Assembly (NCBI GenBank): GCA_036149055.1
Contig: JAYZQJ010000112.1
Span: 1 to 22,774 of the forward strand
DNA: 22,774 nt
Direction: 5' to 3'
Source: Myxococcota bacterium
GTDB taxonomy: Bacteria > Myxococcota_A > Polyangia > Polyangiales > Sandaracinaceae
Part shown: in pieces, positions 6,338 through 17,270 of the stretch
How the letters are laid out: each line of letters begins with the position of its first letter
Position numbering within the stretch: position 1 is the first letter of the stretch
The notes under the pieces: model-generated
The model's input: only the letters and a program-made list of their open reading frames with translations
What the model was told of the DNA's origin: nothing
Databases searched by the model: none
Position numbers and translations under genes: made by a program

Positions 6338-7630
6338 GTGACCAACGAACCGCTCCCCTGGCCCCATGGCCTGCCGCGCGGCGACGTGGACGAGGCCCTC
6401 GTGATCGTCAGCGACGTCGAGATCGGGCCCGGCGGCCCCACCGACGACTTCCCACAGAGCGACTTCCTCGGAGACCTGCTGCTGCGGTACTGCGCGCCGC
6501 CCTTCGACGACGTGCCGCTGACCGTGGTCTTCGACGGCGACACCTTCGACCTGCTCAAGACCCCGACGAGCGACGGCGCCTTCCCGATCCACATCACCGA
6601 GGCGATCGCGCTCGACAAGCTCGAGCGGGTGCTCGCGGCGCACGCGCCGTTCGTGGAGCGCCTGCGTCGCTTCCTCGCTCACCCGGGCGCGCCGCGCATG
6701 ATCAGCTTCGTCGTCGGGAACCACGACATGGAGCTGCTCTTCGCGGGCGTGCAGGAGCGTCTCCGCGAGGCGCTCGGGCACCCGGAGCGGGTGGTCTTCC
6801 CCGGGATCCGTCACCAGCGCGGGCAGGTGCACGTGGAGCACGGGCAGCAGCACGATCCCCTCTTCGCGATCGACACCGAGCGGCCCTTCCTCGAGCACGC
6901 GGGGGAGACGGTGCTCAACCTCCCGTGGGGCACGGTGGCCCTGCTCGAGGTCGCGATGCAGTACCTGCCGGAGCTCCATCAGCTCGATCGGCTCAAGCCC
7001 AAGCGCGCGGTGCTCGCCGCGCTGCCGGAGGTGAAGGACCTGCTGCTCGGGGCCTACTGGCGCTACTGGACCCGCGACTTCTGGCAGAGCTACTGGGCCA
7101 CCCGCGATCCCCTCCGGCGCGTGAGCTGGTCGATGCTCAAGGAGGTCGCCTACCGGTTCGGCACCGGCGACCCGGACGTCTCCATGCAGGACTGCCGCCG
7201 CCTCCTCCACGACCGCCGCGACGAGACGACGCTCATCGTCCTCGGGCACGAGCACGAGCCGGCGTGGTGGAGCAGCGCCGGCCGCCGGGTGCTCCGGACC
7301 GGGTGCTTTCGCAACGAGTGGGAGCTCGACGTGGAGGGCGGCGCGCACCGGCTCCTGCCCAAGGTCTACGCCGAGGTGTTCCTCCGCGGCGACGTCCCGG
7401 TGCGCTCGCACCTGGTGGAGGTCGACGCGCCGCCGCCGCCGGATCCCATGGTGCCCAGCGATCTGGCGGAGGTGCTCGACCACCTTCCGCGGCTGCGCGC
7501 GGCGCAGGTGGAGGGGGACCAGCAGGCCCGCCGCCGCCAGGAGCACTCGGAGTCCCAGGAGCCGAGCCGGGGCCTGCCCGGGTTCGTCGAGACCCTGCGC
7601 GAGGTCCTGGGTCGCGCCGGCGGCGTGTGA
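6338..7630 (+). CDS. Calcineurin-like metallophosphoesterase (LpxH-like motif layout; 430 aa)
   Basis: Motifs IVSDVEIG, DGDTFD, VVGNHD, HVEHGQQHD and VLGHEH occur in canonical order. Confidence 0.85.
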   Translation: MTNEPLPWPHGLPRGDVDEALVIVSDVEIGPGGPTDDFPQSDFLGDLLLRYCAPPFDDVPLTVVFDGDTFDLLKTPTSDGAFPIHITEAIALDKLERVLAAHAPFVERLRRFLAHPGAPRMISFVVGNHDMELLFAGVQERLREALGHPERVVFPGIRHQRGQVHVEHGQQHDPLFAIDTERPFLEHAGETVLNLPWGTVALLEVAMQYLPELHQLDRLKPKRAVLAALPEVKDLLLGAYWRYWTRDFWQSYWATRDPLRRVSWSMLKEVAYRFGTGDPDVSMQDCRRLLHDRRDETTLIVLGHEHEPAWWSSAGRRVLRTGCFRNEWELDVEGGAHRLLPKVYAEVFLRGDVPVRSHLVEVDAPPPPDPMVPSDLAEVLDHLPRLRAAQVEGDQQARRRQEHSESQEPSRGLPGFVETLREVLGRAGGV

Positions 7631-7698: not shown

Positions 7699-9006
7699 GT
7701 GAAAAGCATCTCGATCGCGCTCGTCTCGCTCGCCCTCGTCGCCTGTGGCGACGGCATGGCCATGCCCGACCCGGACGCGGGCCCGCCGCCCGCCAACACC
7801 CTCCGTGACGGGGCCGAGGCGCAGTACGCGCCGGTCTACGAGGCGGTGAGCTACACGGCCGGCGGCTGGGACCGCGAGTGGCTGCCCAAGGACCTCGCGG
7901 TCCACCCGGACGGCCAGCTCTGGCTCGTGCAGCAGATGGAGCGCGACCCCGACTTCGACGATGACACCGAGTGCACCCAGCGCGGCCTCTCCGGCGCGCC
8001 GAACGACTGCGTCTCGCAGCAGGGCAGCACCGTCGCCATCCTCGATCCCGGCGCGGCCGAGCTGGCCACCGCCGAGAACGGGCGCGCGAACGTCGTCGTC
8101 GACGCCAACTCCTGGCACTTCATGCGCCGGCCGTCCTCGATCGCGTTCGGCGCGGCCGAGACGACCCTGAACCCCGACGACCCGGGCGCCGAGGGCGCCG
8201 GCCTCACCGAGCCGGTGACCTTCACCAACACCTTCGCCACCTGCCACGAGCACTGGACCGGCAACCCGACCGACATGCCGGCCTTCATCGGCCCGACCCT
8301 GTGGACCGCCGACCCGGCGATCTACAACGGCGAGAACGGCATGTTCGACTGGTCGAACGGCTCGCACCTCGACATGGTGCACGCCACTCAGTACTGCATG
8401 GGCATCGCCCACGAGCGCGACAACGTCTACTGGACGTTCAACGGCGCCGAGGGGACGCTCGACCTCTACGACTTCGGCAAGCCCCACTTCCAGGGTCACC
8501 ACGACCACTCGGACGGCGACGTCACCCGCTTCTACATGCCCGAGGGTGAAGAGCTCAGCCGGATGCCCTACGTGCCCTCGAACATGGTGCTCGTCGGCAA
8601 CCACCTCTACCTCGCCGACACCGGCAACGGCCGCGTGCTTCGCTTCGACATCGACTCCGAGGTGAGCGAGGAGTTCAGCTTCCGCACCTTCGAGAACCTG
8701 CCCGCCACCGGCATGGTCGGCATCGCGTACGAGGTGCTCCTCGACGCCGAGACCCTCGGCGCGGAGTGGGGCGGCGCCAGCCAGCCCAGCGGCCTGGCCA
8801 TGCTCGACGACGAGACCCTCGCGGTCGCCAACCACGCGACCGGCCACATCTCGCTCTTCGACCTCGACGGCACGCCGGTCCGCACCCTCGACACCGGCAC
8901 CGGGGTCGGCCTCGGCGGCATGACCGCGCTCGACGGCACCCTGTACTTCGTGCAGATGGGCGAGCGCCGCGTCTACCGCATCGACGTGATCCCCGCCGAG
9001 ATGTGA
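7699..9006 (+). CDS. Lipoprotein, probable beta-propeller (NHL/SMP-30-like blades) with a His-rich putative metal site (435 aa)
   Basis: GGAG precedes GTG 7699 (alternative start ATG 7687); lipobox LVAC. Blade motifs PKDLAVHPDGQLW, LYLADTGNGRVLRFD, PSGLAM..LAVANHATGHISLFDLDG. His clusters SHLDMVH and PHFQGHHDHSDG. Confidence 0.85.
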   Translation: MKSISIALVSLALVACGDGMAMPDPDAGPPPANTLRDGAEAQYAPVYEAVSYTAGGWDREWLPKDLAVHPDGQLWLVQQMERDPDFDDDTECTQRGLSGAPNDCVSQQGSTVAILDPGAAELATAENGRANVVVDANSWHFMRRPSSIAFGAAETTLNPDDPGAEGAGLTEPVTFTNTFATCHEHWTGNPTDMPAFIGPTLWTADPAIYNGENGMFDWSNGSHLDMVHATQYCMGIAHERDNVYWTFNGAEGTLDLYDFGKPHFQGHHDHSDGDVTRFYMPEGEELSRMPYVPSNMVLVGNHLYLADTGNGRVLRFDIDSEVSEEFSFRTFENLPATGMVGIAYEVLLDAETLGAEWGGASQPSGLAMLDDETLAVANHATGHISLFDLDGTPVRTLDTGTGVGLGGMTALDGTLYFVQMGERRVYRIDVIPAEM

Positions 9007-9869
9007 TCGAGCGGCTCGCGGCGGGACAGCCACTCCTCCGGGAGCGGCGTGCCCGCCGCGGCCAGCAGCCCACCGACGATCGCGCAGGTGGTGTCGCGAT
9101 CGCCCAGCGCGGAGACCGTGCGCCACATCGCCTCCGGGTAGTCGTCGCGCACGTGGGCGGCGACGAAGAGGCAGAGCGGCACGGTGTCCGGGGCGCTGAC
9201 CCCCGAGCCGTTCCCGAGCGCGACCGCCGCGTCGACCATGCCGGTCTCGGCCGGCAGACGACGCGCCGCCTCGATGCCCTCGCGCGTGTAGCCCCGCGGC
9301 GTGCGCGCGGCCGTGGCGTCCAGGAGCGCGCTCGCGGAGATCGCCGGCTCTTCGACCAGGATGGCGGCCGCCACCGCGATCGCGACGGCGCCGGCCATGC
9401 CCTCCTCGTGGGCGTGAGTCACCTCCGCGCTCGCCCGCGCCTCCTCCGCGCACCGATCGAGGTCTCCGGCGAACCAGGCGCCGAGCGGCGCGACCCGCAT
9501 GGCGCCGCCGTTGCCGAACGAGCCCTGCCCTCGGAACGCCGCGCGAGCGGCGCGCCTCCAGCCCTCGCCCTCACGGACGCGGCGGAGGATCTCGTGAGCG
9601 CCGGCGCCGTAGCCTCGGCTCGGGTCGTGGCGACGCGCGAACGCGGCCGCGAGCGCGTCCTGGTCGATCCGCCCGTGCGCCTCGAGCACCTCGACGACCG
9701 ACAGCGCCATCTGGGTGTCGTCGGTCCAGCGCCACGGACCCTCGGGCAGCTCCCGGTCCCGGATCCGGGCGTAGGCCTCGGCTGGCTCGAGGAAGAACCG
9801 TTCGCCGAAGGCGTCTCCGACCGAGAGGCCGTCCAGGGCTCGGAGCGCGCGATCGAGGGGGCTGACCAT
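8973..9869 (-). CDS. ADP-ribosylglycohydrolase (DraG/ARH family; 298 aa)
   Basis: Mg-binding and family motifs GDAFG, WTDDTQM, RGYG, GNGGAMR, VTH and GDRDTTCAIVG. Confidence 0.95.
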   Translation of the reverse strand: MVSPLDRALRALDGLSVGDAFGERFFLEPAEAYARIRDRELPEGPWRWTDDTQMALSVVEVLEAHGRIDQDALAAAFARRHDPSRGYGAGAHEILRRVREGEGWRRAARAAFRGQGSFGNGGAMRVAPLGAWFAGDLDRCAEEARASAEVTHAHEEGMAGAVAIAVAAAILVEEPAISASALLDATAARTPRGYTREGIEAARRLPAETGMVDAAVALGNGSGVSAPDTVPLCLFVAAHVRDDYPEAMWRTVSALGDRDTTCAIVGGLLAAAGTPLPEEWLSRREPLDHISAGITSMR

Positions 9870-14938: not shown

Positions 14939-15584
14939 ATGCCGCGCTCCGACGTGCTGACGGGCAAGCTCGACGCGCGGGATCGCGCGACCCGAAGGCG
15001 GCGGCGATCCCGGACGGCGGCGTCCGTGGATCCGCACGATGTCTTCGAGGCGTGGCTCGCGGGCTCGCGGTACGCGGGCGTCGCGCCGGGGGCGGTCGCG
15101 CGGATCGACCTCGACGCGTTCGTACGCGACAGCGGCGAGGTCCCGCTCTCCCCTGCCGAGCGCCTGCGCTCGCCCGGGGTCGACCTGCAGCGACGGCGGG
15201 GACCGGCGCCGCCGCCTCAGCCCTCGACCGCGTGTTCTGAGCGATCCGCTCGCGCACCTGTATCGGGCCTACGCGCTCTGGGATCTCGAGCGCTTCGCGG
15301 ACGCGGTCGAGGCCTTCGAGGCGGTGCCGCTCGAGGGGCTCCGGGGCGAGCGCGCCTGGCGCGTGGACGAGGTGCTGGAAGAGACGGCGCGCTGCCGATT
15401 GTTGGCGGGTGACCCCATGGGAGCGCGCCGGGATTACGAGCGACTGGTCGCGCGGTTCGAGAAGGAGCCGCGGCGGATCCGGAAGCTGGACCCCGGGCTG
15501 ATCGATCGGGTGCTGGAGGAGCACTTCGCGGGCCCGCTGCTGGAGAGATATCGAGCCACGTGTGTCGCGGCGGGGCTCGTGTGA
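14939..15584 (+). pseudogene. Frameshifted tetratricopeptide-repeat (TPR) protein gene (pseudogene or assembly error)
   Basis: Protein-like sequence moves between frames: DPHDVFEAWLAG...ERLR in the 14939 frame, AAASALDRV in the 15052 frame, then TPR-like DPLAHLYRAYALWDLERFADAVEAFEAV...GDPMGARRDYERL in the frame ending at 15584. Confidence 0.6.
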
Positions 15585-15592
15585 CCGACCGA

Positions 15593-15598
15593 TACGAT
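15593..15598 (+). promoter_or_regulatory. -10 element driving the riboswitch leader
   Basis: TACGAT, one mismatch from TACAAT and two from TATAAT, 13 nt upstream of the aptamer P1. Confidence 0.5.
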
Positions 15599-15611
15599 TG
15601 AACCGACGACA

Positions 15612-15707
15612 TTCATCCAGACGAGGTGAGGGACCGGCCCGCAGAGCCTCGGCCAACCCGCTCCCGCCAGAGCCGCGGGGCGAAGGTGGCAACGCCGGAA
15701 CGATGGA
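15612..15707 (+). ncRNA. SAM-I (S-box) riboswitch aptamer lacking P4
   Basis: P1 TTCATC/GATGGA; J1/2 CAGA; P2 CGAGGT-GA-GGG-ACCGG-CCC-GCAGA-GCCTCG with kink-turn GA pairs; P3 GCC-AA-CC...GG-T-GGC with distal stem CGCTCCCGC/GCGGGGCG; pseudoknot CCGG 15634-15637 with CCGG 15695-15698. Confidence 0.88.
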
Positions 15708-15714
15708 GGAGCTC

Positions 15715-16362
15715 ATGGAACACGACATCAGAGAGCTGGCCCGCGACATCTCGAGCCGGCCGCGCTTGCTGGAGGCCGGGAGCGAGGAGGGCCGGCGCTT
15801 CTATCGCTGGAGCGTCACGGACCTGCTGGTGGCCGTCGACGCGCGCGAGGTGCACCTGGCCCGCAGGCGCGCCCGGGTGGCGATGCCGCGGGGTCGCGTG
15901 CCGGCGCTCATCCGCGCGACCGATCGCTGGGCGAAGGCGAGGGAGCGCTGGGCCGCGTTCTACGCGTGGGGGTTGCCGCCGGTGGGCGCCTTGGCCCGGT
16001 ACTACCTGCCGCCCTACGCCGAGGACCCCGTGCAGGTGGGAGGGCGCGGCGCGGCCGGCGCCTTCTCCGGGCGGGACACGCTGCGCGAGCTCCCGCCGAC
16101 GCCGGTCGCGGACGGAGTGACCCGGATCGCCGAGTGGTGGCGGGTCGAGGAGCGGGTCGGGCCCCCGGAGGGCGCGCTCATCGGCGAGCGCTGGACGGTC
16201 GGCGACGCGCTGGTGCTGGACGCGCTGCGCCGGGAGCTGGTCCTCGGGGTCGACGACGAGGAGCTCCGGCTCCGGAGCGGCGACGCGCTGGTGTTTCGCG
16301 CGATCTACTCGCAGGCGTGGCCGCGGAGGTCGCGCAGGAAGCGGTCGAGATCGCGCCGCTGA
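15715..16362 (+). CDS. Hypothetical protein downstream of the SAM riboswitch (215 aa)
   Basis: SD GGAGGAG precedes ATG 15715; GC3-biased codons; weak internal duplication (RWSVTDLLVAVDAREVHL / RWTVGDALVLDALRRELVL). The 3' end overlaps the convergent gene. Confidence 0.7.
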   Translation: MEHDIRELARDISSRPRLLEAGSEEGRRFYRWSVTDLLVAVDAREVHLARRRARVAMPRGRVPALIRATDRWAKARERWAAFYAWGLPPVGALARYYLPPYAEDPVQVGGRGAAGAFSGRDTLRELPPTPVADGVTRIAEWWRVEERVGPPEGALIGERWTVGDALVLDALRRELVLGVDDEELRLRSGDALVFRAIYSQAWPRRSRRKRSRSRR

Positions 16363-17270
16363 GCGCGCTCGAGGTTCGGGTACATGCCGGGGCGGGTGGT
16401 CGCGATCGCGGCCAGCCCGTCGTCGTCGCCGTAGAACGTGATCTCCTCGTCGCCGCGGCGGAAGCTGCAGCGGGCGGGCCCGCGATCGCACGCGAGGTCC
16501 TGCCCGGTGTAGCTGGCCATCTGCTCGGCGAACGCGGCGCGGGCCTCGTCGCCGCAGTGGTGATCGCTGACGAGCTCCGGCACGAGGCCGGTCTGCTCGC
16601 TGACGAACACCGAGAAGCGCGCGGGCGCCGGGCGATCGGTCGCGTGCGCGGCGCGCCAGAGCGCGCAGACCCCCTCGCCGGCCTCGACCCAGCTGCGGAC
16701 CGCGCGGCTGTCGGTGCGGGGCACGCGGGAGGCGTGGTGCACGATCGCGTCGAGGGAGAGGCGCTCGCCTTCGGTGCGGAAGTAGAACGAGTAGCCGCTG
16801 CCGTCCGGCGCCTGCGAGGTGCACCGCGAGAGATCGCGATCGCACCGAAACGTGTCGCCTTCGTTCACCGCGAACGAGGTCCCGGGGTGATCGGCCACCT
16901 CGCTGACGTCGCAGTGCTGGGCCACCCCCGTGCGCCCGCTGTCGTGCGTGCCGACGCCGCGCTGCGGATCGACCAGCCGCCGCAGCACGTCGGCCTCGAA
17001 GGTCGCACGCTTCAGCACCTCGAAGATCGCGTCGGCGTCTCCGGCGACGATGGGCTCCGGAGGCGCCTCCGCCTCTTCGGGCTCCGGCTCCGCCTCTTCG
17101 GGCTCCGGCTCTTCGACGGGCTCCGGCTCCGCCTCTTCGACGGGCTCGGGCTCGGGAGCTGGCTCGGGCTCCACCCGAGCCGTGGTGGTGGACTGGTTCT
17201 CCGTGGCGCCCCCACAACCGAGCGCGAGGACGAACCCGAGGCACAGCCAGCGGGGACTCATCTTCGACAT
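16305..17270 (-). CDS. Lipoprotein with Pro/Glu-rich stalk and two homologous Cys-containing domains (321 aa)
   Basis: Lipobox ALGC; EPEPEEA repeats; duplicated HC...CDRxxxRC...FY...L.AI...C pattern; TAGAGT 7 nt upstream. Confidence 0.85.
   Translation of the reverse strand: MSKMSPRWLCLGFVLALGCGGATENQSTTTARVEPEPAPEPEPVEEAEPEPVEEPEPEEAEPEPEEAEAPPEPIVAGDADAIFEVLKRATFEADVLRRLVDPQRGVGTHDSGRTGVAQHCDVSEVADHPGTSFAVNEGDTFRCDRDLSRCTSQAPDGSGYSFYFRTEGERLSLDAIVHHASRVPRTDSRAVRSWVEAGEGVCALWRAAHATDRPAPARFSVFVSEQTGLVPELVSDHHCGDEARAAFAEQMASYTGQDLACDRGPARCSFRRGDEEITFYGDDDGLAAIATTRPGMYPNLERAQRRDLDRFLRDLRGHACE
17053..17172 (-). repeat. Intragenic low-complexity tandem repeat encoding the Pro-Glu linker
   Basis: Repeated GGCTCCGCCTCTTCG / GGGCTCC units. 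Confidence 0.8.

Follow-up and report, generated by a model that had tools for sequence, protein, structure and literature searches.

The window analysed here, a whole contig of 22,774 nucleotides (JAYZQJ010000112.1, assembly GCA_036149055.1), belongs to a Myxococcota bacterium of the family Sandaracinaceae, whose genome (G000; 9.9 Mb, 96% complete) was compared with that of a congener (G001). At 15593–16362 of the forward strand it carries a -10-like hexamer, an S-adenosylmethionine (SAM) riboswitch aptamer of the SAM-I class and an open reading frame (ORF) for an orphan protein of 215 amino acids, P0001. An earlier note on this DNA had described the RNA as a SAM-I switch lacking helix P4 which turns off the translation of a gene of unrecognised function.

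The SAM-I Aptamer and Its Ligand

A single RNA family was found by cmscan in the whole window, RF00162 (SAM) at 15610–15709 (+), with 55.4 bits and an E-value of 1.6e-10 at a gathering cut-off of 44.4 bits. The P4 columns are deleted in this match and the core elements are all present, just as the earlier note had read them. By sequence, P1 consists of 15612–15617 (UUCAUC), the putative anti-Shine-Dalgarno arm of the ligand-bound state, and 15702–15707 (GAUGGA); J1/2 is CAGA, P2a (15622–15626/15647–15651) and P2b flank the kink-turn, and the pocket of P3 reads GCC-AA-CC/GG-U-GGC. The pseudoknot (15634–15698) joins a CCGG of L2 (15634–15637) to a CCGG of J3/4 (15695–15698) and is separated from P1 by AAC only. 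When 27 related RNAs were aligned, 89% of the cells were paired and 17 pairs had changes on both sides, which was reached in 0 of 500 shuffles; this test is inflated by the kinship of the sequences, and slid controls were also far off. The fraction of paired cells amounted to 96% in P2a, 98% in P2b and 96% in the pseudoknot, where three of the four pairs were changed on both sides. The folding energy by itself is not above chance (z -0.32); the evidence for the aptamer is that of the covariance model and of covariation.

Aptamers of the SAM-IV type have P5 and PK-2 on their 3' side. Within the clan, RF00162 was the member kept, over SAM-IV (RF00634) and SAM-I/IV (RF01725). In the window the start codon lies no more than 9 nt past P1, leaving no room for P5, and the P2 internal loop, which SAM-I/IV lacks as described in PMC2864571, is present.

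The bases of the SAM-I pocket (AUC..GAU, the G in J1/2 and C-AA-C/G-U-G), numbered after the T. tengcongensis structure, are retained in the window. All ligand-contact positions that were checked match the Rfam consensus and the aptamers which precede methionine genes (met-led aptamers), and the core CATC/CAGA/GGCCAACC/GGTGGC/GATG is letter-identical in two aptamers in front of homocysteine methyltransferase genes (L031, L047). Because of this identity, and because the same subtype heads an operon with a second MetK (see below), the ligand of the window aptamer is very probably still SAM. Changed core bases were seen in L044 (1483–1574), L078 (3173–3268), L090 and L091, namely CGUC/GACG in P1, a CAUC/GACG mismatch or A45 to G, and these RNAs are candidates for altered ligand specificity.

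Helix P4 is absent in five of the 15 aptamers that precede genes of the P0001 family (genus g1, genus g201) and present in the remaining ones; the protein tree leaves the relation of the two P4-less groups to each other unsettled. The loss of P4 is thus lineage-specific and not a fixed trait of the lineage. We rejected it as a novelty, as relatives have P4 and natural, functional SAM-I aptamers without P4 have been described, mainly from Actinomycetota (PMC12714719). Two further observations concern P3. The L3 loop GAGC (15670–15673) could pair with GCUC (15711–15714) between the Shine-Dalgarno (SD) element and the initiation codon; both are kept in G001, and for the two g1 aptamers that lack P4 this would mean an additional pseudoknot, of only 4 bp and with no covariation. 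At position 15668, contigs of two metatranscriptomes have G rather than C; with G, the outer stem of P3 would be complete.

Conserved Pairing in a Portable Cassette

For the pairing of RNA and gene we compared 13 loci that had been found through the protein and retained their 5' flank (G000, G001, G023, G041, G078, two of G343, G474, G462, G521 and the metagenomic L078–L080), which correspond to about nine independent lineages; L081 and L085, whose 5' part is missing, were outside the scan. A SAM-I aptamer above the cut-off was found directly upstream of the family gene in 11 of the 13 loci (10 of 12 without the unpublished G023, which changes nothing). The two other loci are L080, where the RNA scores 38.8 bits and thus below the cut-off, and L078, which gave no Rfam match at E<=0.01 and has a SAM-I-like variant by eye. 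The pairing is held down to 35% protein identity, and relatives keep the aptamer in front of the same gene, not of a met gene. The earlier note had named as a refuting condition that relatives carry the riboswitch before a normal met gene, which would make the pairing a relic of rearrangement. Its other conditions of this kind that were checked, a missing covariance-model match and an ORF that is not conserved, are contradicted by the data. In a relic, the riboswitch of a met gene would have been left in front of an ORF that is unrelated to it or is there by chance. Three copies of the gene look broken, as such a relic might; with 13 paired loci, covarying stems and constant SD spacing this explanation is hardly credible.

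Homology between G000 and G001 is confined to 15600–16274, and the genes flanking the cassette in G001 map inside another contig of G000; the unit of aptamer and gene is therefore portable. A hexamer TACGAT lies at 15593–15598 (+) without a match to a -35 box, and related loci also have a TAnnnT at -18 to -10 before the aptamer, namely 11 of the 25 compared (11/225 positions, vs 10/4550 further upstream; the range of positions was picked after the data had been seen). This recurrence suggests a promoter belonging to the cassette, so that the -10 box pointed out in the earlier note is retained as a candidate; a full sigma-70 promoter was not detected within 15400–16600, nor was a terminator-like site, whose absence had been noted before. 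Promoter, aptamer and ORF are best read, from the sequence comparisons, as a self-contained accessory cassette, which has stayed together through deep divergence at variable chromosomal sites.

Two ORFs adjoin the unit, both outside the conserved cassette. A tetratricopeptide-repeat (TPR)-like ORF with uncertain start (15324–15584, +; weak TPR matches below the cut-off) ends 9 nt before the -10 hexamer, and an ORF of unknown function on the opposite strand (16305–17270, -) overlaps the 3' end of the 215-amino-acid gene. The gene had been regarded as apparently monocistronic, for which the evidence is half complete: the downstream gene is convergent, but the TPR-like ORF just upstream is on the same strand.

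An Unannotated Protein Family

A search of 1.84 billion representative sequences with P0001 (15715–16362, +) yielded 57 matches at E<=0.001, most of them 200–240 amino acids long. About 54 of them (clusters at <50% identity) represent an unannotated family of approximately 220 amino acids. Three of the 57 matches are long proteins of 717–1157 amino acids; P0041 and P0067 were rejected as members, being repeat artefacts on inspection, and a search aimed at longer, fused forms of the family gave none, which is weak evidence. Of the 50 proteins in the family alignment, 48 came from the 57 matches. Over 213 codons P0001 and its G001 counterpart differ at 62 first, 51 second and 86 third positions, and 45 of 128 identical residues show silent changes. 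With differences most frequent at third codon positions and with its many homologs, the ORF is, judged by its sequence conservation, a real and conserved gene.

No Pfam family matched P0001, and none of the 50 members did so apart from one match at E 0.036; NCBIfam, PHROGs and PADLOC (three members) gave no match to the family either, in line with the earlier note, which had recognised no motif that links the protein to sulfur metabolism. Among ten clusters looked up three were named, all as "hypothetical protein"; one is from Planctomycetota and one from Parcubacteria. Proteins with 60% identity to P0001 carry Sandaracinaceae names. The family is rare, having been found in 6 of the 401 genomes searched within the order and in 5 of 401 within the phylum; truncation or a frameshift seems to affect three of about 15 copies. 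Phage, plasmid and viral collections gave no match.

Predicted Fold of P0001

AlphaFold2 run on the 50-row alignment gave a model with a predicted local distance difference test score (pLDDT) of 92 and a predicted template-modelling score (pTM) of 0.87. The model consists of an N-terminal helix, five strands and a helix, an insert of about 55 amino acids, and again five strands and a helix, the two predicted repeats spanning residues ~18–78 and ~135–201. Its best match among 48,161 chains is Pur-alpha (3k44; Z 9.2, root-mean-square deviation (rmsd) 3.4, 117 residues aligned), followed by 2it9 (Z 7.4) and 2nvn (Z 7.0). A second model, of another family member, also has Pur-alpha at the top (Z 9.7, rmsd 4.2, 126 aligned), then 2it9 (Z 7.8), 2nvn (Z 7.2), MRP1/2 (Z 5.1) and SsgA (Z 4.7). 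Pur-alpha and MRP1/2 belong to the type I PC4-like single-strand binders, and similarity in sequence is frequently absent within this fold (PMC7549692). Like the type I domains described there (Pur-alpha 3k44, 2it9/2nvn, MRP1/2, Whirly, SsgA), the predicted P0001 chain has two sheet-helix repeats; it differs from them in five rather than four strands per repeat, in the N-terminal helix and in the insert between the repeats, and with 8–14% identity there is no match at the sequence level. Members conserve R50, R76, R143 and R172 together with several aromatic residues, including one at position 160.

Other results count against this assignment and the proposed function, or gave no match. Foldseek gave an E-value of 0.02 with query-normalised TM scores (TMq) of 0.21–0.28, PUR was absent among the top 50 Foldseek matches listed for the second model, and the ESM Atlas contained nothing usable (TM <=0.32). 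There was no match in BFVD at E<=0.001, searches of the PDB by sequence and profile returned antibody noise only, none of the 50 members matched the PUR, PC4 or Whirly families of Pfam at E<=0.1, and the two repeats are not significantly similar to each other by sequence (E 0.59). Moreover, the family as a whole is not basic (median pI 7.8, net charge +1), P0001 itself having a pI of 10.9. Taking the models and these results together, we consider that the protein probably has a PC4-like fold and quite possibly binds nucleic acid. The ARPP and TY-chaperone families, in which meanders are duplicated (PMC9503650), were tried as alternatives and dropped, as they had no Pfam match in the 50 members and were absent from the structural lists.

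Layout of the Switch

The 3' strand of P1, GATGGA (15702–15707), overlaps the SD sequence GGAGG(AG) (15705–15711), so that the shared element spans 15702–15711 (+), and the start codon ATG follows at 15715. This arrangement, which the earlier note had interpreted as a translational OFF switch, extends over the family: in 12 of 15 family-led aptamers the start codon lies 8–13 nt past the P1 core. A distance of at most 13 nt was found in these 12 of 15, in 13 of 23 aptamers before other non-met genes and in 2 of 23 resolved met-led ones; the met-led spacing has a median of 44 nt, with 9 of 32 cases unresolved and start codons called automatically, a few of them mis-assigned. A mechanism in which the ribosome-binding site (RBS) forms part of the 3' side of P1 has been described for SAM-I (PMC2258182); both the class of the aptamer and the mechanism with the SD in P1 are already known.

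Folding was calculated with ViennaRNA, which ignores the pseudoknot. In the absence of ligand the pair probability of P1 is 0.03–0.2, and enforcing P1 costs 1.8 kcal/mol over the minimum free energy (MFE) structure. Because P1 is marginal without ligand, SAM bound between P1 and P3 should close this weak helix and hide the SD. Initiation at ATG 15715 would then be blocked in the SAM-bound state, and at low SAM the SD would be freed and the protein made. The mechanism would thus be direct attenuation of translation by a canonical SAM-I aptamer, and OFF logic acting at translation is, on the sequence layout, quite probable. Less favourable for this view are the ligand-free MFE structure, which also pairs part of the SD, and the cost of 4.4 kcal/mol for a fully open RBS; as the former holds and the program ignores the pseudoknot, folding does not demonstrate the ON state. 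RNA sequencing runs, too, gave contigs only, with even cover; one of them (X1) covers all 30 bins, and DNA carry-over is possible.

Distribution of the Aptamer Subtype

A pattern scan of GTDB genomes gave 50 loci, which overlap with those from the genome searches, so that the counts are not additive. Four of them (L023, L041, L052, L058) have no P1 and were dropped as chance matches; from the model searches L097, L118 and L119 (E>1e-4) were dropped as doubtful. Homocysteine methyltransferase (metH-type) genes are headed by 26 pattern loci, of which 24 are titled Planctomycetota; five of these genes were confirmed by Pfam, most others were recognised in translation and L051 by likeness only. 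The other 20 loci, 15 of them titled Myxococcota or Deltaproteobacteria, precede the P0001 family (nine loci) or other genes (11 loci: orphans, HDAC-like, FHA, MoxR-type ATPase and helix-turn-helix genes). Model searches gave matches in 9 of 151 genomes of the class and 24 of 151 of the phylum and added six met-led aptamers, before hom, Cys/Met pyridoxal-phosphate enzymes, a metX-like hydrolase and metK, as well as more orphan families.

In two genomes the subtype heads a gene for a MoxR-type AAA ATPase; about 3 kb downstream there is a second MetK, divergent in sequence, and the genomes have another, separate MetK as well (G104:C41:9674-14386, L167; G859:C1:~966600-971041, L024, L172, L179). 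The second MetK of G104 is below the NCBIfam metK cut-off. This operon is possibly a back-up module for SAM synthesis.

At least four further orphan groups stand behind aptamers with the SD in P1 (L092, L093, L094, L102, L103, L105, L106; L040, L074, L126; L021, L012; L111, L114), with no Pfam match in those scanned. Tandem SAM-I-like RNAs, each before its own ORF, occur in L080 (1019-3414; a family-cREC fusion, then an AAA ATPase) and, each before its own orphan, in L065; a further tandem, G785:C310:6420-6925, precedes a small orphan and then a sliding-clamp-like protein, with an integrase nearby. Met-led aptamers of Planctomycetota (e.g., L025, L029, L035, L045, L063) are followed by a GGCCTGTCCC-like stretch complementary to P2b/L2, a platform that would act against the pseudoknot, whereas the usual switch is directed against P1.

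In G000 the window aptamer is the only SAM-I match, with the Rfam model and with a custom model. The metH-like and yitJ-like genes of this genome lie on other contigs and are therefore without this riboswitch. No metK was found in G000 by tblastn or hidden Markov model; the neighbours of the G001 metK are missing too, and the gap is likely one of the assembly.

Genomic Neighbourhood

One family member is fused to a cREC domain, and in another locus the gene after that of the family encodes cREC, with a 3'-5' exonuclease behind it. For cREC the processing of cyclic phosphates is predicted, and PMC9503650 describes the domain in contexts of RNA repair and ADP-ribose only. Other copies adjoin genes for GmrSD, ResIII, MoxR/vWA, McrBC, PIN, Cas7, integrase, WYL or ADP-ribosylglycohydrolase. 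Within 14 family loci no met or cys gene was present among the neighbours scanned.

The weight of these associations is lessened by several results. The cREC link is based on two metagenomic contigs. In a test with a gene list fixed beforehand, neighbours of the conflict type occurred at 8 of 14 family loci vs 4 of 14 random controls (Fisher p=0.25; controls of 10.65 kb, two of them overlapping, and a test set partly seen earlier). The window and G001 both scored zero, with no conflict genes within 5 kb of the cassette in the window, and a blind set of other non-met, orphan-led loci reached 6 of 16 (9 with off-list nuclease, toxin-antitoxin-like and phosphatase matches). Co-occurrence with BREX was not found: PglZ is present in 1 of 4 family-positive vs 4 of 57 other genomes and absent from G000. 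We treat the link to conflict genes as a lead, and a role of the protein in RNA damage as somewhat unlikely.

Several features lie beyond the 5-kb range of the test or in other genomes. The window carries an ADP-ribosylglycohydrolase gene at 8973–9863 (-), 5.7 kb upstream of the cassette, and at 6338–7630 (+) an ORF with calcineurin-like motifs by eye and no Pfam match; both types recur near other cassettes. Near the contig start is a Phage_GPD/VgrG-like gene (172–1851, +), and palindromic elements of the type GGCGACGTCGCTTCGCTC are repeated at both contig ends (158–560 and 21900–22774), where they were seen as repetitive translations. In G855 a CRISPR-like repeat array is directly preceded by part of a SAM-I-like RNA, namely its 5' half up to and including the 5' strand of P3 (G855:C1:328118-328249, L127); at a distance of 12 kb, near a Cas7-like gene, there is a full aptamer with a family gene.

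Interpretation and Alternatives

The best account of the locus is a translational switch, turned off by SAM, on a portable cassette whose protein would bind single-stranded RNA or DNA or oligonucleotide ends and take part in a response to nucleic-acid stress or to RNA damage, triggered by the depletion of SAM. We put this chain forward tentatively, as a possible explanation, and this grading covers the statement up to the binding of nucleic acid.

With the same SAM-OFF switch, the protein could instead be a small-molecule binder or an enzyme for a metabolite related to SAM, methionine or nucleotides, which would extend the SAM regulon by a new metabolic gene. The near-invariant residues W72, R76, W79, F82, W142, R143, G157 and R172 and the conserved acids D121, E140 and E146 would suit this, and the conserved W, R and E residues would then line a pocket between insert and sheets; the neutral net charge of the family, the usual targets of SAM-I, which are metabolic genes, and the occurrence of the same subtype before metK (L109) and the second-MetK operon point in the same direction. 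On the other hand, no enzyme fold appears among the top structural matches, the scanned neighbourhoods are devoid of met and cys genes, and the distribution is patchy (the 6 of 401 genomes of the order). On balance this explanation is unlikely.

The presence of only one SAM-I in a 96%-complete genome, which leaves the metH- and yitJ-like genes without one, would be accounted for if P0001 were a PUR-like regulator that binds RNA or DNA and relays the SAM status in trans to such genes; regulators do occur among PUR and PC4 folds (PMC7549692, PMC3764826). A relay of this kind fits poorly with a family that is so rare in order and phylum, sits at variable sites and has three apparently damaged copies, and with an RNA that heads many unrelated orphans, and we think it rather improbable.

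To much the same degree improbable is an alarm against phage SAM lyases, a guard triggered by the riboswitch, in which infection would cause SAM to be lost and the repression of a toxic or antiviral effector would thereby be lifted. The SAMase of phage T3 degrades SAM and inhibits MetK, thereby overcoming type I restriction-modification and BREX (10.1101/2023.02.27.530186). The cassettes beside GmrSD, McrBC, PIN, Cas7, integrase, WYL or ADP-ribosylglycohydrolase genes speak for such an alarm, and portability, broken copies, tandem aptamer-gene arrays and the second-MetK operon would fit an accessory conflict module. Against it stand the neighbour enrichment, which is not significant and is nil within 5 kb in the window, the missing PADLOC match, the distribution of PglZ and the lack of a toxin-like fold.

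In a wider proposal, Myxococcota and some neighbours may have co-opted the SAM-I subtype with the SD in P1 as a plug-in alarm for SAM depletion on many unrelated accessory genes, de-repressing an RNA-damage or anti-phage response. The alarm would be attached to the PUR-like family, to three or more further orphan families and to the MoxR-ATPase/second-MetK operon, the trigger could be, e.g., phage SAM lyases, and the outcome would be a riboswitch-triggered immune or conflict response. We regard this proposal as speculative and unlikely.

There is, finally, a small chance that the RNA is a SAM-I variant for another ligand, which would explain the unrelated genes. The precedent is the spermidine riboswitch (PMC10853860), and some relatives have altered core bases in P1 (L044, L078, L090) or at A45 (L091); at the positions checked, the window RNA has the contacts of the Rfam consensus and the met-led aptamers. 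The suggestion of the earlier note that the riboswitch is repurposed consequently applies to its gene context and less so to its ligand.

Relation to Known Systems

With its core helices, kink-turn, pseudoknot and ligand-contact bases the window RNA resembles the S-box (RF00162). It departs from the SAM-I consensus in P3a, which is GCC/GGC rather than GGC/GCC, and in having no terminator or separate expression platform, and from usual SAM-I RNAs in its target, which is not a Met, Cys or SAM gene but an orphan family, PC4/PUR-like by prediction, carried in a portable cassette. SAM-I(Xcc) of Xanthomonas likewise represents a SAM-I acting at translation in a Gram-negative bacterium, as the window RNA is predicted to do; its SD and AUG are placed in separate downstream hairpins and its target is a met operon, unlike the SD in P1 of the window (PMC7270179). 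The spermidine riboswitch shares the SAM-I architecture before unexpected genes, but as described it alters the SAM-contact bases, terminates transcription and heads polyamine genes of Firmicutes (PMC10853860), whereas the window RNA keeps these bases and has no terminator.

Some cassettes are accompanied by cREC, ADP-ribosylglycohydrolase, calcineurin-like phosphoesterase, vWA and WYL, as are the ARG/WYL/vWA/cREC neighbourhoods of PMC9503650; those systems are described as gated by WYL or Nudix factors, and their description, as far as consulted, mentions neither a riboswitch nor a PUR-like member. For the window this conflict or RNA-repair link is missing within 5 kb, and overall it is not significant.

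Neither the pairing nor a riboswitch sensing SAM lyase was found in the titles and abstract openings of the papers that literature searches listed; gene tables in the supplements of PMC2258182, PMC2864571, PMC10853860 and PMC12714719 could list such loci. Within this scope, we did not find it stated in print that the coupling of SAM-I with an unannotated family of PC4/PUR-like proteins is conserved, or that the subtype is employed more widely on accessory genes in Myxococcota.

Pairings of riboswitches and genes are a main route to function for unknown proteins, and here a known sensor points at a family without annotation in the four libraries searched. The findings suggest that accessory genes outside metabolism, too, are turned on when SAM is low. 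If SAM gates accessory genes for the handling of nucleic acids, the sensing of phage-driven SAM loss by the host would become testable with a cassette of less than 0.8 kb, and SAM-I would do more than exert feedback on sulfur metabolism.

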